A DNA stretch of 64,000 nucleotides from Limnohabitans sp. (GCF_044361645.1 NZ_JBIKIL010000003.1:2623-66622), one strand, 5' to 3'; positions 31,798 through 43,886 are shown, counted from the first letter of the stretch. The notes: a model not told the origin generated them from the sequence alone. Translations and numbers: made by a program.

Positions 31798-32538
31798 ATG
31801 ATTCTGATCCCCGCCATTGACCTCAAAGACGGCCACTGCGTTCGCCTCAAACAGGGCGATATGGACCAAGCCACGACCTTTGGTGAAGACCCCGCCGCCA
31901 TGGCCCGCACCTGGCTCGAAAAAGGCGCACGCCGCCTGCACCTGGTGGATTTGAACGGCGCGTTCGCGGGCAAGCCGCAAAACTTCTCGGCCATCAAGTC
32001 CATCTTGAAAGCCGTGGGCGACGACATCCCGGTGCAGCTGGGCGGCGGCATCCGCGACCTGGACACGATTGAAAAATACATCGACAGCGGCCTGCGCTAC
32101 GTCATCATCGGCACCGCCGCCGTCAAGAACCCTGGCTTTTTGAAAGACGCCTGCACCGCCTTTGGCGGCCACATCATCGTCGGGCTGGACGCCAAAGACG
32201 GCAAAGTCGCCACCGACGGCTGGAGCAAACTCACCGGCCACGAAGTGGTGGACTTGGCCAAGAAGTTTGAAGACTGGGGCGTCGAATCCATCATTTACAC
32301 CGACATTGGCCGCGACGGGATGCTCAGCGGCATCAACATCGACGCCACCGTCAAGCTGGCCCAAGCCTTGACGATCCCCGTCATTGCCTCGGGCGGCCTG
32401 TCCAACATGGCCGACATCGAGCAACTGTGCGCAGTGGAGGATGAAGGGGTCGAAGGCGTGATCTGTGGCCGTGCGGTGTATTCGGGCGACCTGGACTTCG
32501 CGCTGGCGCAGCAACGCGCCGACGAACTCAACGGTTGA
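31798..32538 (+). CDS. hisA: Phosphoribosylformimino-5-aminoimidazole carboxamide ribotide isomerase
   Basis: [40 protein letters not shown]. Confidence 0.97.
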
Positions 32539-32561
32539 CACGATCTCCATCCCCATTCCAC

Positions 32562-33416
32562 ATGAGCCTTCAGGCCACTTGTCGCGACACCGAGTTCGCA
32601 GGCCTGCCCGCTTGTGAACTGCGTTTGCCGCAAGGCGACCGCCTGTTGGTCGCCCTGCACGGCGCGCATGTGCTGTCTTGGGTGTCGGGCGGCCAAGAGC
32701 GCCTGTACCTCAGCCCCCAAAGCGTCATGGACGGCCAAACCGCTATCCGGGGCGGCGTGCCGGTGTGCTTTCCGCAGTTCAACCAACGCGGCCCGATGGC
32801 CGATCGCCTGCCCAAACACGGCTTTGCCCGCAACCTGGCTTGGCAGGCCGATGCGCCTGTGCTGTCGGCCGACAGTGCCCAGCTATGTTTGCATCTGCAA
32901 GACAACGCCCGCACCCGCAAATGGTGGCCGCAGGCCTTTGCACTGCAACTGCACATCACCCTGCGCCCCGGCACCCTGCGCATCAGCCTGAACGTGCACA
33001 ACACCGACACTCAGCCGCTGGCGTTTTCGGGGGCGCTGCACACCTATTTGGCCGTGCCCGACGTGACGCAGGCCACGCTGCAAGGCCTGGGCGGTCAACC
33101 CGAGTGGGATTCAATCACCGACACCCACGCGCAAGCCGACGACACACTGCGCTTTGCCGCCGAATTTGACCGTGTGTACGAAGCCGGGCCACAGCCCATG
33201 ACGCTCAACCAGACCCTGCACATCAGCCAAAGCCCCAGTTGGGCCCACACCGTGGTTTGGAACCCCGCGCAAGACCTGTGCAAGCGCTTGGCCGACATGC
33301 CCGAGGGTGGCTGGCGACACATGCTGTGCGTCGAAGCGGCGCAAGTGTACGATCCCATCACCTTGCCTGCGGGCGGACGATGGGAAGGCTGGCAGCGCTT
33401 GGCTTTGTGTGCATGA
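32562..33416 (+). CDS. D-hexose-6-phosphate mutarotase (aldose 1-epimerase family, YeaD-like)
   Basis: GAHVLSW, AIRGGVPVCFPQF, HGFARN, ALHTY, FDRVY, VVWNP, MLCVEAA. Confidence 0.88.
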   Translation: MSLQATCRDTEFAGLPACELRLPQGDRLLVALHGAHVLSWVSGGQERLYLSPQSVMDGQTAIRGGVPVCFPQFNQRGPMADRLPKHGFARNLAWQADAPVLSADSAQLCLHLQDNARTRKWWPQAFALQLHITLRPGTLRISLNVHNTDTQPLAFSGALHTYLAVPDVTQATLQGLGGQPEWDSITDTHAQADDTLRFAAEFDRVYEAGPQPMTLNQTLHISQSPSWAHTVVWNPAQDLCKRLADMPEGGWRHMLCVEAAQVYDPITLPAGGRWEGWQRLALCA

Positions 33417-33444: not shown

Positions 33445-33666
33445 ATGAGTCAGATCATGTCGATTGAACAAGCGCGCAGCAGCAGTTTAAGAGGATCGGT
33501 GGCTGCCATGGCCAGAGCGGCCAATCAAGCCCGGCGAACGGCTGCGCAAACCCAAACCGCTTTGGTGGTCGAGCGCAATGGCGTTCTGGAGCATCTGTAC
33601 ATCACGGCCACACAAAGCGACATCAAGCCCAATACCGTCTCCATCGCACCACAAGAGGGTCACTGA
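33445..33666 (+). CDS. Small hypothetical protein (73 aa)
   Basis: Open frame between the mutarotase and hisF; helical pattern LRGSVAAMARAANQARRTAAQTQTALVVERNG. Confidence 0.55.
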   Translation: MSQIMSIEQARSSSLRGSVAAMARAANQARRTAAQTQTALVVERNGVLEHLYITATQSDIKPNTVSIAPQEGH

Positions 33667-33669
33667 AAC

Positions 33670-34470
<801 letters not shown>

Positions 34471-34487
34471 CGAGTTGACGAATCGGC

Positions 34488-35495
34488 CTAGACGCTGAGC
34501 AAAGCATCCAAAGGGCTGGCTGTGCCACCCGCGGCCACCTTCAGCACATGGGTGTAAATCATCGTTGTCGAGACGTCAGAATGACCCAGCAACTCTTGCA
34601 CCGTGCGAATGTCGGTGCCCGACTGCAGCAAATGCGTGGCAAACGAGTGGCGCAGCGTGTGAACGGATACGGGTTTGACAATGCCCGCAGCCGCAACGGC
34701 CTTTTTTAAGGCGCGTTGCAAGCGCTCTTCAAACAAGTGGTGGCGGCGCTCCACGCCACTGCGAGGGTCAACCGACAGCGTGGGCGAAGGAAACATCCAA
34801 AACCAGCCCCACGTATCACCTACCTTGGGGTATTTGCTAGCCAAAGCGTGGGGCACATCCACACCACCCCGTTGCACTTGCCGATCAGCCTCCCACTGCG
34901 CCCGTGCCGCCAACATTTGCAAACGCAAGGCCGGTGCCAGCGAGCGGGGCAGCATCACCACGCGGTCTTTGGACCCTTTGGCCTCGCGCACGATGATGGC
35001 CTGACGCTCAAAATCCACGTCTTTTATCCGCAAGCGCATCCCCTCCATCAGCCGCATGCCCGTGCCGTACAGCAGCCGAGCCAGCAGCGCAGTCACGCCG
35101 TCCATCTGTGCCAAAAGACCAGCCACTTCGTCTTTGGTCAGCACCGACGGAATGCGCTTGGTCTGCTGAGGTCGACCAATGTTATTGAGCCAAGGTAAAT
35201 CAATGCCCAGCACCTCCCGGTACAAAAACAGCAGAGCACTGAGCGCTTGGTTGTGAGTGGAGGCCGACACCTTGCGCTCATTGGCCAGCATGGACAAAAA
35301 AGCTTCGACATCGGCCACACCCAACTCGCGCGGGTGACGCATGCCGCCTGACTGCGTGGCGCTCCAGCGGATAAAAAAACGAATCCAATAAAGGTAAGCT
35401 TTCTCGGTTTTGAGGCTATAGTGCATATACCGAACCCGCTCGCGCACCTGATCAAGCAAGCGGGTGGACTGCAAGGAAGGGGCACCGGGTTTCAT
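34488..35495 (-). CDS. intI: Integron integrase (IntI1/IntI3-like clade)
   Basis: [22 protein letters not shown]; LLYGTGMR; KGSKDR; integron-specific insert LASKYP...W.WFWMFPS...[11 protein letters not shown]; [12 protein letters not shown]; [16 protein letters not shown]. All catalytic R-K-H-R-H-Y residues are present. Confidence 0.96.
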
Positions 35496-35508
35496 GGCAA
35501 ATTTATAC

Positions 35509-35524
35509 CTGTACAAAACCACAG
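35509..35524. promoter_or_regulatory. LexA (SOS) box CTGT-ACAAAACC-ACAG upstream of intI
   Basis: Matches CTGT-N8-ACAG and overlaps the intI -10, the arrangement established for SOS-regulated integrons. Confidence 0.85.
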
Positions 35525-35551
35525 TATACGAACCTGTAAGCCAAGGCGCAA
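35523..35551 (-). promoter_or_regulatory. PintI promoter TTGCGC-N17-TATACT
   Basis: Minus-strand hexamers at 35551-35546 and 35528-35523. Confidence 0.65.
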
Positions 35552-35577
35552 GCGGCTTGCGGCCATTTCATCCAAAA

Positions 35578-35636
35578 GATGTATCGACTGTGCCTGGATG
35601 TATCCACCGGGTTTTGCGGTCTACATCACGTTAGGC
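35578..35636 (+). other. attI recombination site
   Basis: Direct repeats GATGTATC at 35578 and 35597 (19-bp period), then core G/TTAGGC at 35630-35636 directly before the first cassette ORF. Confidence 0.8.
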
Positions 35637-35646
35637 CTCATATCAA

Positions 35647-36168
35647 ATGTTTCCTACTTCAATGAAGCTCAGTTTCTTCACCGCTGCACTGATCGCACTC
35701 TCTGTCATCACGGGTTGCGCAACTGCCCCTGCGGACGCTCCGAAGTTTTCAGCCGCTCCTGCGGCGCCTGAGGGCTTTGCCACCGTGTACGTTTTTCGGC
35801 TGAGTGCGCCCCCATTCTCAAGAGAAATTAAGTTGAGCATCGCGGGAAAGCCGTTGTTCGCCGCCACCGAACAGGCCTATACATGGGCGTACGTTCGTGC
35901 GGGCACTCACACGGTATATGCGGAGTGGCCGACTGAACTCTTCGGAAGCAAGCAATGGCCAGATGCATCCACGACGTTAGCCCTAGAAGCCGGTAAGTCT
36001 TACTTTGTCCGCGCCCTCGGAGATGTTGGAATTGTCTCGGGCGGGTTCCTGTCGGGCGGCTCTATTGTTCGGAGGAGCGGGCTCATCGTGCTTCCACAAG
36101 AGACAGGGCAAGCACAATTGATTGCCTGTTGTCGTTACATTAAGCCCGTCCTTAGCGTCGTCGAATGA
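35647..36168 (+). CDS. Gene cassette 1: DUF2846-like lipoprotein
   Basis: Lipobox VITGC, ATVYVFR, YTWAYVRAGTHTV; bounded by GTTAGGC (35630) and its complement GCCTAAC (36170). Confidence 0.7.
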   Translation: MFPTSMKLSFFTAALIALSVITGCATAPADAPKFSAAPAAPEGFATVYVFRLSAPPFSREIKLSIAGKPLFAATEQAYTWAYVRAGTHTVYAEWPTELFGSKQWPDASTTLALEAGKSYFVRALGDVGIVSGGFLSGGSIVRRSGLIVLPQETGQAQLIACCRYIKPVLSVVE

Positions 36169-36169
36169 G

Positions 36170-36224
36170 GCCTAACGAGTAAGGATAGGTCGCGCGAAGC
36201 CGCGACCTGATCCGTTTGTTGGAC
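36170..36224 (-). other. attC site in reverse orientation relative to attI
   Basis: Minus strand reads GTCCAAC-AAACG-GATCAGGTCGCG-GCTTCG-CGCGACCTATC-CTTACTC-GTTAGGC. The extra base (C on minus, G36209 on plus) marks the plus strand as the bottom strand. Confidence 0.75.
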
Positions 36225-36437
36225 GAGCCCGGTTCTGGGCGGTGGTTTGAGCCCTACAGAAAACATCTTTTTTGTCTTGCCTGTGCGATTGAGCATTCAC
36301 ATGGCTCAAGCGATCTGACGGCGTTGCGCCTTGTGCCATTGCGGCACTTTTGGGCCCTGTGTGGCTGTTTTTGGTCGCGCACATGCTCAGTGCTTTTGGG
36401 GCACTGTTGCGCAATCCTCAAGCTGAGATCGGGATTG

Positions 36438-36908
36438 TTACTGCTTCGTGGTGGCCTGACTGTGTTGCGGTGGCGGCGCATTGGTCGATGGCAAGATTCG
36501 GCGGCGCAGCACCCTCATGGCACCGGCGCAGCACGCGCACTTCCATTGCGCACGAGGCGTGGTCTGAGATGTCGCTGATGGGGTTGCGGTGCCACTTGGG
36601 CGCTTGAACACCAGCAACTTCAGCAAGGCGATCAGCCTTTTGCTGTTCGGATGCAAGAAACCAAAGTTGCGCGCCCTTCTAAAGCCTTTGGGCAAAACAT
36701 GCTGCATCACCAGACGCAGAAACTGCGCGCCACTCACGGTGCGCGTGGTCAGGCGTTTGGTTTTGCTGTCGCGCCAACGGTAGGTGACGTTGTTGCCGTC
36801 GCAGCGCAAGATGTCCTTCTCCTGAATGACGCCCCGGTACAAATAGCGGCCCAAGTAGATGATGGCCTTGTGACCACTGCCCACACTCTTGCAATCGACC
36901 ACCCACAC
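36438..36908 (-). pseudogene. IS91-family (Y2 HUH) transposase, C-terminal remnant
   Basis: WVVDCKSVGSGHKAIIYLGRYLYRG (YxxxY), VTYRWRD, FLRLVMQHVLPKGFRRARNFGFL, C-terminal CACC..M. The N-terminal Zn/HUH part is absent. Confidence 0.82.
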
Positions 36909-36997
36909 TGCGGTTCCTCCCCGATGACGTCAGGCTGCGATTGTGGACATGGCAAGATCATTTCGACCCAATAAAAAGCGAGCGCACATGACACGCT

Positions 36998-37054
36998 CGC
37001 TAACCCGTTGCTCCATCGAACGGCTTCGTAGCCCGCTGAGTGCCAACGCTAAAC
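36998..37054 (+). other. Degenerate attC (core GTT mutated to GCT)
   Basis: CGCTAAC-CCGTT-GCTCCA...GCTGAGT-GCCAAC-GCTAAAC. Restoring GTTAAAC gives the exact complement of the next cassette's inverse core GTTTAAC (37615). Confidence 0.6.
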
Positions 37055-37106
37055 CGCAGAAGAAATATTGGTTGTTGCCAATACGTTTTGTATATACACT
37101 TGCCGC

Positions 37107-37382
37107 ATGGAGTTCACTTGGTCTGAAACGAAGCGTGCAGCGAACATCAAAGCCCATGGGCTTGACTTCCTGGATGCCGCGAGCGTTTTTGAAGGCGTGA
37201 CATTTACGTTCGAGGATGACCGTTTTTCCTACGGCGAGCAACGCTTCGTTACGCTGGGCTTGCTCGCTGGCATCACTGTTTCAGTCGTACATACGGAGAA
37301 TGAACATGAAATCCGCGTCATCTCTTTCCGAAAAGCAACCAAGCGCGAGTCGCAAATCTACTTCGATGAAATCCAAAACTGA
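37107..37382 (+). CDS. brnT: BrnT family toxin (cassette)
   Basis: MEFTWSETKRAANIKAHGLDFLDA, YGEQRFVTLG, RVISFRKATKRE. Confidence 0.92.
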   Translation: MEFTWSETKRAANIKAHGLDFLDAASVFEGVTFTFEDDRFSYGEQRFVTLGLLAGITVSVVHTENEHEIRVISFRKATKRESQIYFDEIQN

Positions 37383-37620
37383 TTGGGCGCGCCTGAAGTC
37401 CGGTGCGGGCGAACAAAAGCCGGCCCCCGAGCACCCAGAGGCGAACGTAAAGCACATTGTTCGCGGTTTGGTTCGCAAGGGTTTGAAGCCGCTACCTGCC
37501 AAAGCATCCATTTCGCTGCGCGTGGATCAAGATGTGCTCGAATGGTTCAAGGCTCAAGGAGCGGGCTATCAGACGCGCATTAATACAGTTCTGAGGGCCT
37601 TCCGTGACGCTTCGGTTTAA
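37366..37620 (+). CDS. brnA: BrnA family antitoxin (cassette)
   Basis: TDWARL, ISLRVDQDVLEWFKAQGAGYQTRINTVLR; the stop TAA overlaps the attC inverse core. An upstream start at 37303 is possible. Confidence 0.9.
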   Translation: MKSKTDWARLKSGAGEQKPAPEHPEANVKHIVRGLVRKGLKPLPAKASISLRVDQDVLEWFKAQGAGYQTRINTVLRAFRDASV

Positions 37621-37701
37621 CAGGCTGCTCGTCACGTACACGCAGCAGCAGCTTGCCCCTGCGCGGCGCTTGTTGCGTGCCGGACAGCGCCAACTTTATG
37701 C
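37615..37701 (+). other. attC of the BrnTA cassette with dead core (GTT to TTT)
   Basis: GTTTAAC-AGGCT-GCT(C)GTC...GACAGC-GCCAAC-TTTATGC; canonical 5/6-nt spacers and extra C in L''. Confidence 0.72.
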
Positions 37702-37718
37702 GATACCAAAACCACCCC

Positions 37719-38105
37719 ATGCCGCAATCCACCGCAGTTGAAGTTGCAAAAGAGTTTTGGCGCCTTATGGCGAGCAATGACTTCCAAGCAGTCAGTGCTG
37801 TCCTGGCCCCCAACTTTGTACTCGAATGGCCTCAATCGAAGGAACGCATTCGCGGTGCCGAACGGTTCGCACAAATGAACCAGGAGTACCCGGCGCATGG
37901 CCACTGGAAGTTCACAGTCAATCGGCTTGTAGGCTCAGAGTCGGAGGCCGTGTCCGAGGTCGAAGTCACAGACGGAGTTCAAAAGGCCAGGGCCATCACC
38001 TTCTTTACCGTCCAGCAAGGCAAAGTCACACGGCTTGTCGAGTTTTGGCCCGAGCCTTATGCGCCTCCAGCCAATAGGGCGCACCTCGTAGAGGCAATGG
38101 AATGA
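37719..38105 (+). CDS. Gene cassette: SnoaL/NTF2-like protein
   Basis: VLAPNFVLEWPQSKERIRGAERFAQMNQEYP, FFTVQQGKVTRLVEFWPEP; followed by GCCTAAC. Confidence 0.8.
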   Translation: MPQSTAVEVAKEFWRLMASNDFQAVSAVLAPNFVLEWPQSKERIRGAERFAQMNQEYPAHGHWKFTVNRLVGSESEAVSEVEVTDGVQKARAITFFTVQQGKVTRLVEFWPEPYAPPANRAHLVEAME

Positions 38106-38121
38106 GCGTGCACGCAGAAGC

Positions 38122-38175
38122 GCCTAACGAGTAAGGACAGGTCGCACGTAGCCGCTTTTCTGTCCGTTTGTTGGC
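38122..38175 (-). other. Second reverse-oriented attC of the same family as 36170-36224
   Basis: 31/34 identity over the left part and an identical TCCGTTTGTTGG; GGACAG/CTGTCC arms; inner stem degenerate. Confidence 0.65.
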
Positions 38176-38776
38176 GTGCGCCCGGCATGGGCGCACACCT
38201 GTGGGTGCAAGTCCCGCCGCGAGCTGGTCACAGCGAGCTTGAGTGTTGCGCAACTGCATGAGGGTGACCGAGTGTGGGAAGGCAAGCGTGGCGCGTAAAC
38301 CGCGAGTCGATGAACAAAAATCGCATAGAAGGCGCTGCCAAGCAGGGCGAGCAAGCGCCAATTTGCAAAGCTCTTGTGACCAAGGCGAAGTGGCGTAGAT
38401 GCGGCGATTGTGCGGTGAAGGTGTGCGTTCTTACCCGGGGAGATCTCGCCCTACGGCTGAAAGGCCGACGGTGCAAGCCGCAAGCGAGAAGTCAGCAGAG
38501 ACCGTAGCAGTGGGCGTACGGGGTCGACGTGGCACAAAGAAATCCACGAAGGCCAAACGGTTGACGTCAATCAGGCGTTAGAGAGTGACTGAAGACATGC
38601 AAAGCCGCAAAGTCATGCGTCAGATGCTGGGGCAACCCGGGCTGGCAGGGAGGAAGCCCGGTGAAGCTGGGTGTGAGCCTGCCAGTGACGAAACTGGAGG
38701 GACGTTGCATGAGCACCCAGGCACAGGGTCAGCAAAGTCGATGGTCTTAACAGGTGGCCTGCTGGAGGCGGCGCTG
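38176..38776 (+). mobile_element. Group II intron, class C type, 5' fragment only (domains I to start of IV)
   Basis: Starts GTGCGCCCGGCATGGGCGC; GGGTGCAAGTCCCG; GTTCTTACCCGGGGAGATCT; GAGAAGTCAGCAGAGACCGTAG; IEP leader follows. No RT motifs or domain V seen. Confidence 0.8.
38597..38776 (+). pseudogene. N-terminal stub of the group II intron-encoded RT/maturase
   Basis: MQSRKVMRQMLGQPGLAG..GEAGCEPASDE...GTGS...LLEAAL, then unrelated sequence and a stop at 38812. Confidence 0.65.
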
Positions 38777-38952
38777 CTCATGCGCTGGGTAAGATGCGGT
38801 GATGACTGCTAAAAAGTTCTCAAATGCAGACACAAAGAGACTTTTGTAGGTATCCAGACAGACCATAATCTGCCTCTAACTTGGAACTTGAGAGTTGAAA
38901 GCATCAATCCCCTTTCTGAAGAAAGACTCACCACCGCCTTTGATGCGGTTTC

Positions 38953-39030
38953 GCTCAACATGGTTCATCAACCGCGAATGACGTCATCGCCGCTGGCGGG
39001 CCTTGCTGGCGCGGTGGATAAACGCTAGGT
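38953..39030 (+). other. Possible degenerate attC (core GCTAGGT)
   Basis: GCTCAAC...GTTCATCAACCGCG / CGCGGTGGATAAAC arms (12/14), then GCTAGGT just before the next ORF. Confidence 0.4.
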
Positions 39031-39065
39031 GTGAAACCACTTTTTGCGGCATTGAATCTATGCAT

Positions 39066-39461
39066 ATGCGATACGCACTCTGGCCCATTTTTCTCGTTGC
39101 CGCCGCGTCTGGTGCTGCCGCAGAAGAATCGTGCGGCATGCACGCCGTGAGTCTTCTTGCGGAAGGCAAGACTGAGGAACTGGCAGCCTTGTTCACAATC
39201 CAGTCCGAGGTTGTTGAGCCTTTGCAGCGCACGGTAGAAAGCCTCGGAAAAATTACGAACATCAAAGCAGCTTCGACTGCTCGCTTCGCTCAGCACAAGC
39301 GCATTTCAATTCAATCGAAAGATTTGCCGCCATCTTACAAATACCAGGGTTACTGGATCAACGCGCGCTCGGAGAGGCTCGGCGCGTTGCAATTTCATAT
39401 TGCTCGCGCACCTGAATCCGCCTGCAGACTGCTTGCGCTTCACATGGACACTGCGCCGTGA
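39066..39461 (+). CDS. Gene cassette: secreted hypothetical protein
   Basis: Signal peptide MRYALWPIFLVAAASGAAA; two Cys; flanked by attC-like remnants. Confidence 0.65.
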   Translation: MRYALWPIFLVAAASGAAAEESCGMHAVSLLAEGKTEELAALFTIQSEVVEPLQRTVESLGKITNIKAASTARFAQHKRISIQSKDLPPSYKYQGYWINARSERLGALQFHIARAPESACRLLALHMDTAP

Positions 39462-39489
39462 ATTTGATGCGATGCAAGCGACGGGCGTG

Positions 39490-39540
39490 GTTTAACCAGT
39501 TGCTGGTCACGGACAAGCAGCATCAGAATGCCGCCGCCGG
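39490..39540 (+). other. Left half of an attC similar to the 37615 site
   Basis: GTTTAAC-CAGTT-GCTGGTCACGGACAAGCAGCATCAG parallels GTTTAAC-AGGCT-GCTCGTCACGTACACGCAGCAGCAG; right arm and core not found. Confidence 0.5.
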
Positions 39541-39776
39541 AACGTGTCAATGACTTTGCTGCACCTTGCTTCATAAATTGACGCTGCAGGGCTGTTCTGT
39601 GATTGACGTCAACTGGCATCACGTCGAGGCGAAACCCGAATGAGCCTTCGCTGTTGAGGCCGTCCAAGCCCTCCAACTGAGCTTGGATGCTTGCGGATGA
39701 GATACCGCCGACGTATTGACAACAGCTACACCCGTGCCTGCCATTCGTAGCCACTGCATACACACGAAAGGTCACC

Positions 39777-40049
39777 ATGCGCGCCGCAGCCATCAATTTG
39801 CGTGCCTTGCCGGAACAGCGAGATCTCATTGATCACGCCGCCACCCTGCTGGGCAAGAACCGTTCTGACTTCATGCTGGAAGCCGCTTGTGAGCGTGCGC
39901 AATCGGTATTGCTCGACCAAGTGTTTTTTGGACTGGATGCGGAAAAGTTCCAGCAGTTCACCGCCCTGCTCGACGCGCCGCCCAGTGCCAATGCGGGTCT
40001 TGAGCGGCTGATGGCCGTCAAGGCCCCGTGGGACAGTCAAGCCACATGA
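39777..40049 (+). CDS. DUF1778 (RHH) antitoxin of a GNAT TA system
   Basis: AINLRA.PEQRDLIDHAATLLGKNRSDFMLEAACERAQSVLLDQ.FF.LD.EKF..F..LLD.PP. Confidence 0.92.
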   Translation: MRAAAINLRALPEQRDLIDHAATLLGKNRSDFMLEAACERAQSVLLDQVFFGLDAEKFQQFTALLDAPPSANAGLERLMAVKAPWDSQAT

Positions 40050-40540
40050 GCTTGAGCCTGTCAGCCCCGCAGCCACTGGCGGCTGCGCACCTGTTGGGCG
40101 ACTTCGAGTGCGGTGAGCCTGCGCTGGATGAGTGGCTGAAACGCCGGGCGCTGAACAACCATCTGAGCGGGGCCAGCAGGACCTTTGTGGTCGTTGACGA
40201 TGAACAGCGGGTGCGCGGTTTTTATGCCTTGGCCGCTGGCGCGGTCGTGCACCAGATGGCCACCCCTTCGGTGCGGCGCAACATGCCCGACCCGATTCCC
40301 GTCATGGTGCTGGGCAGGCTAGCGGTGGATCGTCGGTCACAAGGCATGCAACTGGGAGCGGCACTGTTGCAGGACGCGGTCCATCGCGCCATTGCCGTGT
40401 CGCAAAACACCGGCGTTCGCGCCTTGCTGGTTCATGCGCTGCACGAACAGGCCAAAGCGTTTTATAAGCACTACGGGTTTCAGGAATCGCCAACACACCC
40501 CATGACGCTGATGTTGCGCCTGAACAGCGTCAAGGCTTGA
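40046..40540 (+). CDS. GNAT acetyltransferase toxin (TacT/AtaT-like)
   Basis: FECGEPALDEWL, GFYAL, LGRLAVD...G..LG..LL, LLVHAL.E.AKAFY..YGF; ATGA overlap with the antitoxin. Confidence 0.92.
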   Translation: MSLSLSAPQPLAAAHLLGDFECGEPALDEWLKRRALNNHLSGASRTFVVVDDEQRVRGFYALAAGAVVHQMATPSVRRNMPDPIPVMVLGRLAVDRRSQGMQLGAALLQDAVHRAIAVSQNTGVRALLVHALHEQAKAFYKHYGFQESPTHPMTLMLRLNSVKA

Positions 40541-40554
40541 TTTTCCCCACAGGG

Positions 40555-40955
40555 CCGGCACCAGTCCTAGCCAGACGCAGAATGGGTGCCCGCCGGCAAA
40601 GTCTCGGCCTTTCTCCACTGTGGCCGCAGTGGCAGTGGCAGTGGCAGTGGCAGTGGCAGTGGTCGGGCCAATGCCTGCGAACTGCATCAGTTGGCGTGAT
40701 CACACATCTTCTTTGGTGGCTTGCTCAATGTGGTGGTCATACTGCTTGACACGTTCATCCCAGAGGCTCAACTCGCTCAGTGCATCGGCTGCGTCGGTGT
40801 TGCACCAGCCGGGCAAGTCTTCGCGGTGCATGTGCGCATGGCAGCGCACAGTGGCAGCTTTCAGAGGCAGCACAATGCCCAATTCAGACAACAGTCCTGA
40901 ATGCGATGGATCAGCGCAGTGCGTTGTTCCACATTCCACATAAGCTGGGCCCCTC
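40555..40955 (-). pseudogene. IS110/IS1111-family transposase internal fragment
   Basis: VEQRTALIHRI / GLLSELGIVLPLKAATVR...EDLPGW.N...D.RVKQYD.HI...D.*SRQLM...GIGPTTATA...WLGLVP; frameshift, in-frame TGA at 40700-40702, both ends missing. Confidence 0.8.
40626..40661. repeat. Hexamer microsatellite (GCAGTG)x6 inside the IS110 remnant
   Basis: Six exact copies; reads TATATATATAT in the transposase frame. Confidence 0.95.
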
Positions 40956-40977
40956 GTGCCACTTGGGCGCTCCCCAA

Positions 40978-41055
40978 GTGCCAGGCATGCGTGAGTCGAC
41001 CAAAGAAGGCATGGCCCAAGCACCGGACACATGCGCCAAGGCGCTCGACGGGTGA
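40978..41055 (+). pseudogene. C-terminal remnant of a YefM/Phd-type antitoxin
   Basis: VPGMRESTKEGMAQAPDTCAKALDG*; the stop overlaps the GTG of the YoeB-like toxin. Confidence 0.65.
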
Positions 41056-41315
41056 GCTGGAAAGTTTTTGATGCCAAGCACGCATAAAAAGAAGCGCAGA
41101 AACTGTCAGCCAGCGGGCTGAAGGGCAAAGCCCAAGAACTGCTGGCCATCATCCAAGAAAACCCATTTCAAAATCCACCCCCTTATGAAAAGCCCGTAGG
41201 CGATCTATCGGACGCCTGTTCATGGCGAATCAATATCCAGCATCGCCTTGTGTACGAAGTTCTCCAGGAGCAAAAAATCGTCAAAGTTCTTCGCATGTGG
41301 TCACACCATGAATAA
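41052..41315 (+). pseudogene. Txe/YoeB family toxin with a premature stop
   Basis: MSWKVFDAKHA*KEAQKLSASGLKGKAQELLAIIQENPFQNPPPYEKPVGDLSDACSWRINIQHRLVYEV...VLRMWSHHE; TAA at 41085-41087. Confidence 0.85.
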
Positions 41316-41393
41316 GCGGCGCAACGGTATGAATCGCACCGGATTTTGTGGAAGCAGCTTGGATGTTGCCGACGAATCCGCTAGAGTCGAAGG

Positions 41394-41633
41394 ATGGCAC
41401 CTACCGTTGTACGCGATGGACCTTACCGGTTGTTCTTCTTCTCCTGATAAGAGCCAAGCATCCACTTCCATGTCGCACATCCAGATGGAGAGGCCAAGTT
41501 CTGGCTGACCCCCGTTGTTCACTTGGCGACATCCACGGGCCTGTCACCCCGCCAGATCACTGACGCGCAAGGCGTTGTTCAAGCACACATGAAGGAAATT
41601 GAAGATGCATGGAACCATCACTTTGGCGGCTGA
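41394..41633 (+). pseudogene. DUF4160 family protein (toxin of the DUF4160-DUF2442 pair) with tandem stops
   Basis: MAPTVVRDGPYRLFFFS**EPSIHFHVAHPDGEAKFWL...EIEDAWNHHFGG; TGA-TAA at 41445-41450. Confidence 0.8.
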
Positions 41634-41856
41634 GGTCACCAACATCTCTCGCCATGGCTTCTGGATGCGCCTTGGCGACGAGGAGTTGCTGTTGTCCTAT
41701 GAACAATTCCCCTGGTTTAAACAAGCCACGGTGGCGCAAATCACCCACGTTGAGCGTCCTACTCCAGATCACCTTTATTGGCCGAGCCTGGACATAGACC
41801 TATCCGTTAGCGCTATTCGCAGGCCCCAAGATTTTCCGCTCATGTCGCGCAGCTGA
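41605..41856 (+). CDS. DUF2442 family protein (partner of DUF4160)
   Basis: EVTNISRHGFWMRLGDEELLLSYEQFPWFKQAT...HLYWPSLDIDLSV. Confidence 0.82.
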   Translation: MHGTITLAAEVTNISRHGFWMRLGDEELLLSYEQFPWFKQATVAQITHVERPTPDHLYWPSLDIDLSVSAIRRPQDFPLMSRS

Positions 41857-42044
41857 TTGTGCAACCGTTGCCGAAACCCGTTCCCCTCACGCAGGATGTG
41901 ATGGTCAGATCACTTTTGCCTGAGGATCAGCTGCAAATCGCCCAATTGAGGCTGCATTACTGAGGCATGCTGGTTGCTGGGTCAAAGAATTCAAAGTGAT
42001 GGCTGTTTTGATAAGATTCAATCCTACTCACTCAAAGGCCCGTC

Positions 42045-42314
42045 ATGCGAACCACTCAACAACTGAGCATCACATTGCCCAATGAGATGGCCGATGCCAT
42101 CAAGAGGAAAGTGCGTGCAGGCGAGTACGCGACAGAAAGCGAAGTCATTCGCGAAGGTCTTCGCGCACTTCTAAGCCGAGACCGCGCCATTGAGTCTTGG
42201 CTGACGCATCAAGTCGGTGCGGCTTACGATGCACTCAAGGCTGATCCAACGAGAGCTGTCACGGTGGATCAGGTGCGTGAGCGCCTTGCACAAGAGCACA
42301 CCAAGTTGCAATGA
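42045..42314 (+). CDS. ParD-like RHH antitoxin
   Basis: LSITLPNEMADAI..KV..GEYATESEVIREGLRAL. Confidence 0.85.
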   Translation: MRTTQQLSITLPNEMADAIKRKVRAGEYATESEVIREGLRALLSRDRAIESWLTHQVGAAYDALKADPTRAVTVDQVRERLAQEHTKLQ

Positions 42315-42637
42315 CACACCGGGTTGTCTTTTCGCCCGAGGCTTTGGAACAAATTGCTGACCTTTACCAGTACATCGCATCCGAGGCCTCGCCTAGTATT
42401 GCTTTGCGCTACACCGAAGCCATTGTGAGCTACTGCGAAAGCCTGAGCATTTTTCCTCAGCGCGGCATGAAACGCGACGATGTGCGGACTGGTTTGCGCA
42501 TCACACACTACAAAAAACGCGCAGTGATTGCTTTTGCAGTAGATGCAGGGTGGGTATCCATCTTGGGCATCTTTTACGGAGGGCAGGATTATGAGTCTTT
42601 GCTGGCCGACGATTCGGACGATGGCGTGCCCCATTGA
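42311..42637 (+). CDS. ParE/RelE family toxin
   Basis: RVVFSPEALEQIADLYQYIA, FPQRG..RDDVR.GLR, VIAF.V....V.ILGIFYGGQD; ATGA overlap with the antitoxin. Confidence 0.87.
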   Translation: MTHRVVFSPEALEQIADLYQYIASEASPSIALRYTEAIVSYCESLSIFPQRGMKRDDVRTGLRITHYKKRAVIAFAVDAGWVSILGIFYGGQDYESLLADDSDDGVPH

Positions 42638-42690
42638 GGGTTTGCAGGTTTATGAAAACGTCACAGTCAATCACTTAAGATCACCCCCCT

Positions 42691-43080
42691 ATGAATTGGC
42701 TCGACAACATCAAATGGGACGACAAAGGCTTGGTGCCTGTGATCGCCCAAGAAAAAGACACCGGCGATGTGATGATGTTCGCCTGGATGAACCGCGAGGC
42801 GCTGCAAAAGACGGCCGAGCTCAAGCGGGCGGTGTATTTCAGCCGCTCGCGCAACAAGCTGTGGTTCAAGGGCGAGGAGTCGGGCCATGTGCAGACGGTG
42901 CACGAGATCCGCATCGATTGCGACAACGATGTGGTCTTGCTGAAAATCACCCAGCTGGGGCACGAGCCGGGCATTGCCTGCCACACGGGTCGCCACAGCT
43001 GCTTTTTCCAGAGCTTGCAGCCAGACGGCTGGCAGGCTGTGGACCCGGTCCTGAAGGACCCTGAAACCATTTACAAGTGA
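42691..43080 (+). CDS. hisI: Phosphoribosyl-AMP cyclohydrolase
   Basis: [32 protein letters not shown]. Confidence 0.96.
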
Positions 43081-43085
43081 ACGCG

Positions 43086-43478
43086 ATGAGTTCTACCGAC
43101 ACCTTGGCCCCGTCCTCTGAAGACACGCTCGCGCGTCTGGCCGCCATCATCGAAAGCCGCAAAGCGGCCAACGGTGGCGACCCCGAGACCAGCTATGTGG
43201 CCCGCCTGCTGCACAAGGGGCCGGACGCTTTTTTGAAGAAAATCGGCGAAGAAGCCACCGAAACTGTGATGGCTGCCAAAGACGTGGAGCACGGCGGCGA
43301 TGCGTCCAAGCTGGTGTGCGAGGTGGCCGATTTGTGGTTTCACAGCATGATCGCGCTGGCGCACTATGGTCTGACGCCCGCCGACGTGGTCAACGAGTTG
43401 GCCCGCCGCGAAGGCCTGAGCGGCCTGGAAGAAAAAGCCCTGCGCAAAGTGCAAGAGCGCGAGCGCTTGGGCGAATAG
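43086..43478 (+). CDS. hisE: Phosphoribosyl-ATP pyrophosphatase
   Basis: [30 protein letters not shown]. Confidence 0.95.
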
Positions 43479-43505
43479 ATTGCACGCTTGGGCGAATAGA
43501 TTTCA
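43464..43505 (+). repeat. 21-bp tandem duplication spanning the hisE stop
   Basis: CGCTTGGGCGAATAGATTGCA / CGCTTGGGCGAATAGATTTCA (20/21), with a weaker third unit after. Confidence 0.85.
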
Positions 43506-43523
43506 CCTTGGAGCGAACAAACC

Positions 43524-43886
43524 ATGAACGACCAACCCGTCGATGACAGCACCCACACCACCAGCTGGGTCAGCTACATCTTGCACCTGATCGTGGCAGT
43601 CAGCGCCGTGATTCCGGGTGCCCAGATGGGCCCGGCCTTGCTGGTGGTGGCGCTGATCATCGATTTGGTCAAAAAAGGCGACACCGCAGGCTGGGAAGCC
43701 ACGCATTTCAGCTACCGCATCCGCACTGTGATTTGGGCCGCTTTGATGTACTTGATCACAGCACCTTTGTGGCTCTTGATGTTTTTCCCCGGCTGGCTGG
43801 CCTGGGTGGGCATTTCCATCTGGTTTTTGTACCGCATCGTGCTGGGCATGGTGCGCCTGAACGGGCAGCGACCGGTGACCGACTGA
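43524..43886 (+). CDS. Small inner-membrane protein (DUF4870-like)
   Basis: Three hydrophobic segments; THFSYRIRT..W, WFLYRIVLG; usual neighbour of hisE. Confidence 0.7.
   Translation: MNDQPVDDSTHTTSWVSYILHLIVAVSAVIPGAQMGPALLVVALIIDLVKKGDTAGWEATHFSYRIRTVIWAALMYLITAPLWLLMFFPGWLAWVGISIWFLYRIVLGMVRLNGQRPVTD

Follow-up and report, generated by a model that had tools for sequence, protein, structure and literature searches.

In Xanthomonas, a chromosomal integron reportedly lies downstream of ilvD (Gillings et al. 2005). For this integron, an ancestral gain, repeated inactivation of the integrase gene intI, variable cassettes and occasional transfer of arrays between species are described in a preprint (Colombi et al. 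2025, 10.1101/2025.06.18.660453). Here we describe an integron that lies between hisF and hisI in Limnohabitans sp. (GCF_044361645.1). The window, i.e. the whole stretch of DNA that was analysed, comprises 64,000 nucleotides (NZ_JBIKIL010000003.1:2623-66622), and all positions are counted from its first letter. The ilvD-linked integron is the closest analogue of the Limnohabitans locus, with one conserved site by an amino-acid biosynthesis gene, an apparent ancestral gain at the level of the genus and repeated loss of intI. The Limnohabitans site differs in lying between two genes of one biosynthetic cluster and in having many perfectly empty alleles and short arrays with few recognisable attC sites. 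Moreover, recent exchange appears to have involved the intact intI itself, and the host is a freshwater planktonic betaproteobacterium.

Two further kinds of described system resemble the locus. Clusters of attC sites lacking integron-integrases (CALINs) and integrons with decayed integrases were reportedly catalogued with IntegronFinder (Cury et al. 2016). As in CALINs, most members of the genus contain cassette-type genes, whether attC is present or not, at a locus where intI is deleted or missing; unlike CALINs, the window has a complete integrase and attI, and many relics in the genus would not be called CALINs because they have no detectable attC. In the sedentary chromosomal integrons of Vibrio, the arrays are stabilised by toxin-antitoxin cassettes. 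The integron in the window is likewise chromosomal, with what appears to be SOS-type control of intI and several toxin-antitoxin modules in its array, and the relics in other genomes retain the toxin-antitoxin module nearest the distal end. It differs from the Vibrio integrons in its size (approximately 10 genes against hundreds), in its attC sites, which do not form a homogeneous functional family, and in a locus that is not universal in the genus. In the literature that we searched, an integron was reported neither for Limnohabitans nor for the hisF/hisI site. Decay and CALINs are already well known; the present case is set apart by its position between two his genes, frequent clean empty alleles, short attC-poor arrays and evidence for re-supply of the integrase.

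The presence of an intact chromosomal integron between hisF and hisI is an observation. To account for it, we favour, with a probability of roughly 0.75, the explanation that the integron is an old and polymorphic occupant of the site between the hisF stop codon and the promoter and start of hisI. It would come and go in the genus and be mostly decaying, with a platform that looks alive, an array that is largely fossil and alleles that are exchanged among species.

Integron platform and junctions

The minus-strand intI converges on hisF, and its stop codon is separated from the end of hisF by 17 bp (34471-34487). Foreign DNA extends for approximately 7 kb beyond attI, up to 53 bp short of hisI: parE ends at 42637, and the hisI ATG is at 42691. 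The gap sizes and coordinates of both junctions in the first-pass annotation of this DNA were exact, and the chromosomal integron that it placed between the two genes is borne out by the full-length integrase matches, attI and the flanking his genes. No target duplication was seen at the flanks of the integron. The positions of all features are summarised in Table 1.

The ORF (open reading frame) of intI (34488-35522) is open up to a GTG at 35522, and the ATG at 35495 is the probable start. The protein matches two integrase models over their full length (TIGR02249, 448 bits with a cut-off of 265; NF011946, 460 bits with a cut-off of 435). An alignment with VchIntIA (2a3v) likewise spans the whole protein, covers the integron-specific insert and shows every catalytic residue (R, K, HxxR, H and Y), and the protein thus has both the extra domain and the catalytic residues that characterise integron integrases. 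Its identity to IntI1 on plasmids is 62%, and the near-identity to IntI1 by which class 1 integrons are recognised was not found. A LexA-box-like palindrome lies upstream of the intI ATG, over the presumed promoter of the gene; its CTGT and ACAG halves are preserved in three genomes of the genus (designated G013, G089, and G023). We take this palindrome to be an SOS operator, following the published LexA consensus.

The core of attI is located 135 bp upstream of the intI ATG. Similarity of the window to G013, G023, G089, G064, G080, and G102 stops at 35632-35639, and each of these genomes then has different DNA. Cassette content is wholly different even in comparison with relatives whose IntI is 96-99% identical, and the homology ends at the crossover (35635-35639). 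This pattern suggests a site next to intI where cassettes enter, as expected of attI. A Pc promoter for the cassettes was not found in a strict consensus sigma-70 scan of 33600-43600. Judged from their sequences, the integrase, the LexA-type box and attI look like a functional integron platform.

The window belongs to a metagenome-assembled genome in 225 contigs, and the arrays of relatives are often located at contig ends. The junctions might hence be artefacts of assembly or binning, and misassembly had been named in the first-pass annotation as a finding that would overturn its reading. However, the same hisF-intI junction is present in G013 (L090, L001) and G089 (L137), and in the latter genome hisF, a deleted intI, the array and hisI are all contained in one contig of 2.58 Mb. 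The parDE-hisI junction is repeated at the same position in G062 and G084 with 95.7% identity. Because both junctions recur in relatives, they are not attributable to misassembly, and we give an artefact a practically negligible probability.

Distribution, decay and proposed exchange of alleles

The genus was sampled as an even set of 81 genomes, and the sizes of the hisF-hisI gap are those of 69 near-complete genomes with an identified hisI. The gap was 5-12 bp in 17 genomes, 22-56 bp in 16 genomes of a basal clade, and 604 bp to 8.2 kb in 21 genomes (for example 604, 981, and up to 7947 and 8223 bp); gaps of 40 and 83 bp were also present. An additional 12-13 contigs break within foreign DNA upstream of hisI. 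In the clade that bears the locus, 19 genomes are empty or near-empty and 33-34 are occupied, mostly by remnants. A whole intI is present in only three of the 81 genomes. The earlier proposal of a fixed locus does not hold in view of these numbers, while the comparison of related genomes that it called for revealed both variable cassette content and empty as well as occupied sites.

DNA homologous to intI and attI of the window adjoins hisF in 13 further genomes of the genus. The intI gene is complete in G013 and G023, with the window as the third complete copy, and exists as a remnant in the other 11 genomes, 10 of which have kept the attI-proximal 5' end. In G089, intI has an internal deletion of 326 bp, yet five clean attC sites in the normal orientation are present. 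Canonical attC-like hairpins were also detected in the gaps of G073 and G036, and possible ones in the loci of G075, G080, and G102. The relic gaps are mosaics of common modules with 86-95% identity, which include a VOC/glyoxalase gene, DUF1272, a GNAT gene, and ParE-like/ParD-like or RelE/HTH pairs adjoining hisI. The first-pass annotation had stated that relatives without an integron but with separated hisF and hisI would speak against it. Such relatives do exist, so that this statement applies literally, yet approximately 11 of the separated sites hold relics of the same integron, and the finding is thus enlarged rather than removed. Including the window, 14 genomes have the integron at the same site, with losses and probable interspecies exchange, as in a sedentary integron; the long homogeneous attC array of such integrons is not present, since the array in the window has approximately 7 kb, approximately 10 genes and two similar attC sites.

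The last 16-24 bp before hisI are common to all occupied alleles: (T)TAAGATCAC(T/C)CCCCT. This right boundary, ending in ...(T)TAAGATC, was considered as a relic core of attC or attI and rejected, as the preceding base is C or A and never G. The uninterrupted 83-bp spacer of G071 (L159) has the motif of the occupied alleles, TCTTAAGATCACCCCT, downstream of the older TAGTTAATTCATACCC element. This allele may be the type that the integron entered or a nearly complete excision scar.

Outside the genus, the association with hisF disappears. Among 80 loci of related IntI (68-98% identity), hisF is located downstream in only one, a Limnohabitans metagenome-assembled genome. At the remaining 79 loci (68-91% identity; Polaromonas, Rhodoferax, Hydrogenophaga, Ramlibacter, and others), hisF is never nearby and the neighbours are varied. 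No conserved neighbour of related IntI genes was found in other genera, the largest cluster comprising 5 of 74 loci. In agreement with the first-pass annotation, the location of the integron is therefore specific to the lineage.

The trees of the flanking genes are too unresolved to polarise the alleles, and rpoB was therefore used. In the rpoB tree (51 genomes), the outgroup clade and the basal ingroup lineages are uninterrupted and the crown clade is mostly occupied, but eight nested crown-clade genomes carry a compact junction in which TGAAC directly precedes the ATG. The tree requires at least seven changes between the occupied and the empty state, and a single clade of all uninterrupted genomes was rejected with a p-AU (p value of the approximately unbiased test) of 3e-59. 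Since deletions are not expected to remake an identical 5-bp junction repeatedly, we infer that species exchange entire alleles, with homologous recombination taking place in the conserved his genes.

The intact intI appears to have a more recent history than its surroundings. Nucleotide identity between the window and G013/G089 is approximately 90% in hisF, rises to 97-99% only a few bases away from where hisF stops, remains at this level throughout intI and its promoter, and drops to approximately 81% beyond approximately 35560. The synonymous divergence (dS, Nei-Gojobori) of intI is 0.094 relative to G013 and 0.063 relative to G089, compared with 0.23-1.08 for the flanking genes and 0.55 for rpoB (G013 only); a value for hisA was left out because of a threading error. 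Synonymous divergence between species is thus 4-10 times lower in the intact intI than in its neighbours. The low dS and the step in identity suggest that the integrase was shared between species much more recently than the genomes diverged. Conversion from a differently flanked copy, e.g. a mobile integron, could explain a tract that is confined to the gene, although a donor was not found.

Low dS could alternatively reflect constraint at the DNA level, such as overlapping signals or codon bias, instead of recent exchange. In class 1 integrons, the Pc promoter is embedded in the intI region, and the present comparison includes three genomes only. However, the drop in divergence covers the entire 1-kb gene and starts no more than a few bases from the end of hisF. 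The intI of G023 is 89% identical to that in the window and the pseudogene remnants are 72-83% identical, which indicates that intI is free to diverge. Constraint is accordingly a very unlikely cause of the low dS. Building on recent exchange, we tentatively suggest, as a possibility rather than a probability, that the integron platform of this genus is not purely sedentary: an intact intI with its SOS-controlled promoter would have been re-supplied across species to the same his site and would have revived decaying arrays repeatedly, with the leaderless hisI promoter as a safe harbour. The re-supplied gene could have come by recombination in the flanks or by conversion from a circulating mobile copy, with a tract ending at the gene edges.

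Predicted hisI promoter and weight of the evidence

The right boundary of the occupied alleles contains a -10-like hexamer (TAAGAT in the window). In the basal members of the genus, the short hisF-hisI spacer ends in TGGTAGATTCAACCC immediately before the ATG, which places an extended -10-like element at a distance of 6 nt from hisI. Within the genus, 51 of 66 genomes have a hexamer at a distance of 6-9 nt from the hisI ATG; the exceptions, as assigned by eye, are the compact alleles. Of 26 other genera in the family, 20 likewise have a -10-like hexamer (GACAAT, TACACT or TAGATT), at a distance of 6-7 nt from the hisI ATG; the rest of the 60-nt upstream region contained only two such hexamers across the 26 genera. 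The hexamer is present whether or not hisF lies upstream, and in 10 of 29 other genera the 1.5 kb around hisI do not include hisF. The fixed position of the hexamer regardless of hisF, together with the genera in which hisI lies apart from hisF, makes a separate promoter for hisIE probable, with an mRNA that is leaderless or nearly so. Such a promoter would explain why the insertion is viable and why its right edge is sharp.

According to the first-pass annotation, hisF, hisI and hisE are normally contiguous, and an integron fixed in the lineage has interrupted a continuous his operon, leaving hisIE-tatABC uncoupled from the his promoter. The integron is indeed real and specific to the genus, and the compact alleles place hisI straight after hisF, so that co-transcription exists in the genus. 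However, the scarcity of whole intI and the 19 empty or near-empty genomes in the clade argue against fixation, and the -10-like hexamer keeps its position in the occupied alleles and across the family. In this family, the assumed contiguity is correct only in part, as hisI is already separate from hisF in the ten genera mentioned above. Uncoupling of hisIE from the his promoter is probably moot given the conserved hexamer, and the split of a continuous operon by a fixed integron is an account that we regard as quite unlikely.

Several points weigh against an old, polymorphic integron as the explanation of the locus. The attC sites were detected by a home-made and uncalibrated hairpin scan, and most of the 7-kb insert is not a regular attC array. 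The strict sigma-70 consensus scan of 33600-43600 found no promoter anywhere, and the hisI promoter is thus predicted from conservation alone. The species tree is that of rpoB only, and the group for the p-AU test was named after the tree was seen. The trees of hisF and of hisI plus hisE have low resolution and depart from that of rpoB. In many relic gaps, traces of intI and attC sites are both absent. The gaps of G032 (L124) and G064 (L148) contain a minus-strand ORF of 613 aa and a methyltransferase-like ORF of approximately 260-290 aa; these genes do not look like small cassettes, and some occupants may therefore have arrived otherwise. The gap of G064 still has a remnant of the attI region.

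The same gaps, the two large genes and the incongruent trees of the flanks would suit a different view, in which the hisF/hisI junction is a general swap-prone spot for any foreign DNA and the integron is one occupant rather than the founder. This view is opposed by the homologous intI/attI DNA, which is spread across the clade in the 13 further genomes and always abuts hisF, and by the single right boundary of all occupied alleles. In addition, the relics contain small cassette-type genes and toxin-antitoxin pairs, and canonical attC sites have been kept in G089, G073, and G036. We consider a general insertion spot unlikely, though by no means negligible, and retain the old, polymorphic integron as the preferred explanation.

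Under this preferred explanation, the uninterrupted hisF-hisI junction would be the ancestral state, and one clade would have gained the integron, probably into an allele that already had the hisI promoter. In most descendants, the end of intI nearest hisF or the entire gene would then have disappeared, and 0.6-4 kb of cassette-type genes with a toxin-antitoxin pair adjoining hisI would remain; some lineages would again carry the clean compact junction. Empty, relic and complete alleles may have been swapped between species by homologous recombination via the conserved his genes, and the intact intI of the window and G013/G089 may have spread among these genomes in recent times, in a tract that comprised only intI and its promoter. 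A separate promoter that transcribes hisIE into an mRNA with little or no leader would allow the insertion without histidine auxotrophy and would fix the right boundary at 16-24 bp before the hisI ATG.

Array contents and implications

The array behind the integrase looks largely fossil and rich in toxin-antitoxin modules, of which the window contains 4-5 (Table 1). The hairpin scan of the insert gave two clean attC-like sites, hairpins (a) and (b), which are homologous to each other. On the minus strand, the R'' (GTCCAAC) and R' (GTTAGGC) cores of hairpin (a) both equal the consensus, and both hairpins have an extra-helical G and a shorter spacer on the plus-strand 3' arm. The consensus cores on the minus strand and the features of the 3' arm indicate that both sites are reversed relative to attI. 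The sites in the attI orientation, at 37615 and approximately 39484, have degenerate cores. As aligned by eye, the former matches an intact 87-bp attC of G089 (gap positions 2601-2687) over its length, with 80% identity by BLAST over 71 bp (37618-37688), and the latter is an attC-like GTTTAAC... after the ORF at 39003-39461.

The unit of hairpin (a) is also present in G089. A segment of approximately 300 bp on the attC side of the IS91 fragment (36166-36465) is common to the window and G089 with 92% identity and overlaps the last 28 bp of the fragment's ORF. Sites of the reversed attC family stand directly after the stop codons of three plus-strand ORFs, i.e. the DUF2846 and SnoaL genes in the window and a 381-aa ORF in G089; the G089 (L137) site of this family is approximately 940-1240 bp upstream of hisI.

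Table 1 Features of the integron locus and its boundaries in the window.
Feature	Position	Strand	Evidence
hisF, left anchor	33670..34470	+	Pfam His_biosynth 281.7 bits; protein 95-97% identical within the clade
intI, intact integron integrase	34488..35495	-	TIGR02249, NF011946, alignment to VchIntIA 2a3v
LexA-box-like palindrome CTGTACAAAACCACAG (CTGT-N8-ACAG)	35509..35524	.	Read from sequence; 14-29 nt upstream of intI ATG
attI crossover core GTTAGGC (crossover after the first G)	35630..35636	+	Homology to relatives ends here
First cassette gene, DUF2846 lipoprotein-like; cassette apparently intact	35647..36168	+	Pfam DUF2846 34.9 bits, just above the cut-off of 34.3
attC hairpin (a), reversed relative to attI	36170..36224	-	Hairpin scan
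IS91-family (Y2_Tnp) transposase fragment, C-terminal	36438..36908	-	Pfam PF04986 90.4 bits, profile positions 92-179 of 183
brnT-brnA toxin-antitoxin pair	37107..37620	+	BrnT_toxin 83.9 bits, BrnA_antitoxin 65.1 bits
attC, normal orientation, degenerate R' core (TTTATGC for GTTAGGC)	37615..37701	+	Line-up by eye with the G089 attC
SnoaL-like cassette gene	37653..38105	+	Pfam SnoaL_2 47.8 bits
attC hairpin (b), reversed, homologous to (a), intron host	38122..38176	-	Read from sequence; plus strand ends ...GTTTGTTGGC, then GTGCG
Group II intron, 5' part	38177..38800	+	Rfam RF02001 100.5 bits at 38258-38429
ORF, possible signal peptide by eye from ATG near 39063	39003..39461	+	No Pfam/NCBIfam match
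tacA-like antitoxin and GNAT toxin pair	39777..40540	+	TacA1 90.7 bits, GNAT families
Decayed yefM-yoeB pair	40960..41325	+	Translation; weak YoeB_toxin match; intact homologue in G080
Small ORF and DUF2442 gene	41348..41856	+	DUF2442 56 bits; 89% identity to L128
parD-parE toxin-antitoxin pair, last before hisI	42045..42637	+	RHH/ParD and ParE_toxin matches
TAAGAT, -10-like hexamer	42676..42681	+	9 nt before hisI ATG, within the conserved 16-24 bp right boundary; promoter function predicted
hisI and hisE, right anchor	42691..43478	+	PRA-CH 115 bits, PRA-PH 52.1 bits

Group IIC-attC introns insert into the bottom strand of attC (Leon and Roy; PMC3001079). In the window, the group II intron is inserted after ...TTGTTGGC of the reversed attC (b). 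As in the group IIC-attC introns, its 5' end (GTGCG) abuts the attC and its sense strand has the bottom-strand features (PMC3001079), which agrees with the plus strand being the bottom strand in the window. Unlike those introns, its host attC is reversed relative to attI, so that the intron points along the array. The ORF of the intron-encoded protein, a reverse transcriptase, is cut after approximately 20 codons (...LLEAALLMRWVRCGDDC, followed by a stop), and the truncated intron cannot be mobile. Decay is also evident in the yefM-yoeB pair, with a truncated antitoxin gene and a toxin gene interrupted by an in-frame stop. The module of the small ORF and DUF2442 is common to the window and G067, where it adjoins hisI. 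The non-coding debris that separates the GNAT toxin gene from the yefM-yoeB pseudogenes includes approximately eight repeats of the hexanucleotide GGCAGT (40618-40665).

On the left side, the plus strand carries hisC, hisB, hisH, hisA, an aldose-1-epimerase-family gene, and hisF. The aldose-1-epimerase-family gene (32535-33416) is found at the same position between hisA and hisF in every genome of the genus in which the region was recovered, and its identity across the genus is 43-86%, i.e. it is far more divergent than its his neighbours. On the right side, hisI is followed by hisE, a 120-aa ORF, and tatA/B/C. The 120-aa ORF (43524-43886) between hisE and tatA had no match in Pfam or NCBIfam and is 90-92% identical in G013 and G089.

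Chromosomal integrons are thought to be the source reservoir of clinically important mobile integrons, and to our knowledge their gain, upkeep and loss in the environment are known from a few genera only. Here, an abundant freshwater genus shows every stage at one site between essential genes, i.e. empty, complete, integrase-deleted and almost erased, and the locus hints at an integrase gene that passes between species. With respect to operons, it suggests that a biosynthetic cluster can bear a split at a point where an internal promoter is already available. If intI is indeed re-supplied, one locus in Limnohabitans would show, as a time series made by nature, how integrons are born, decay, are lost and are rescued.

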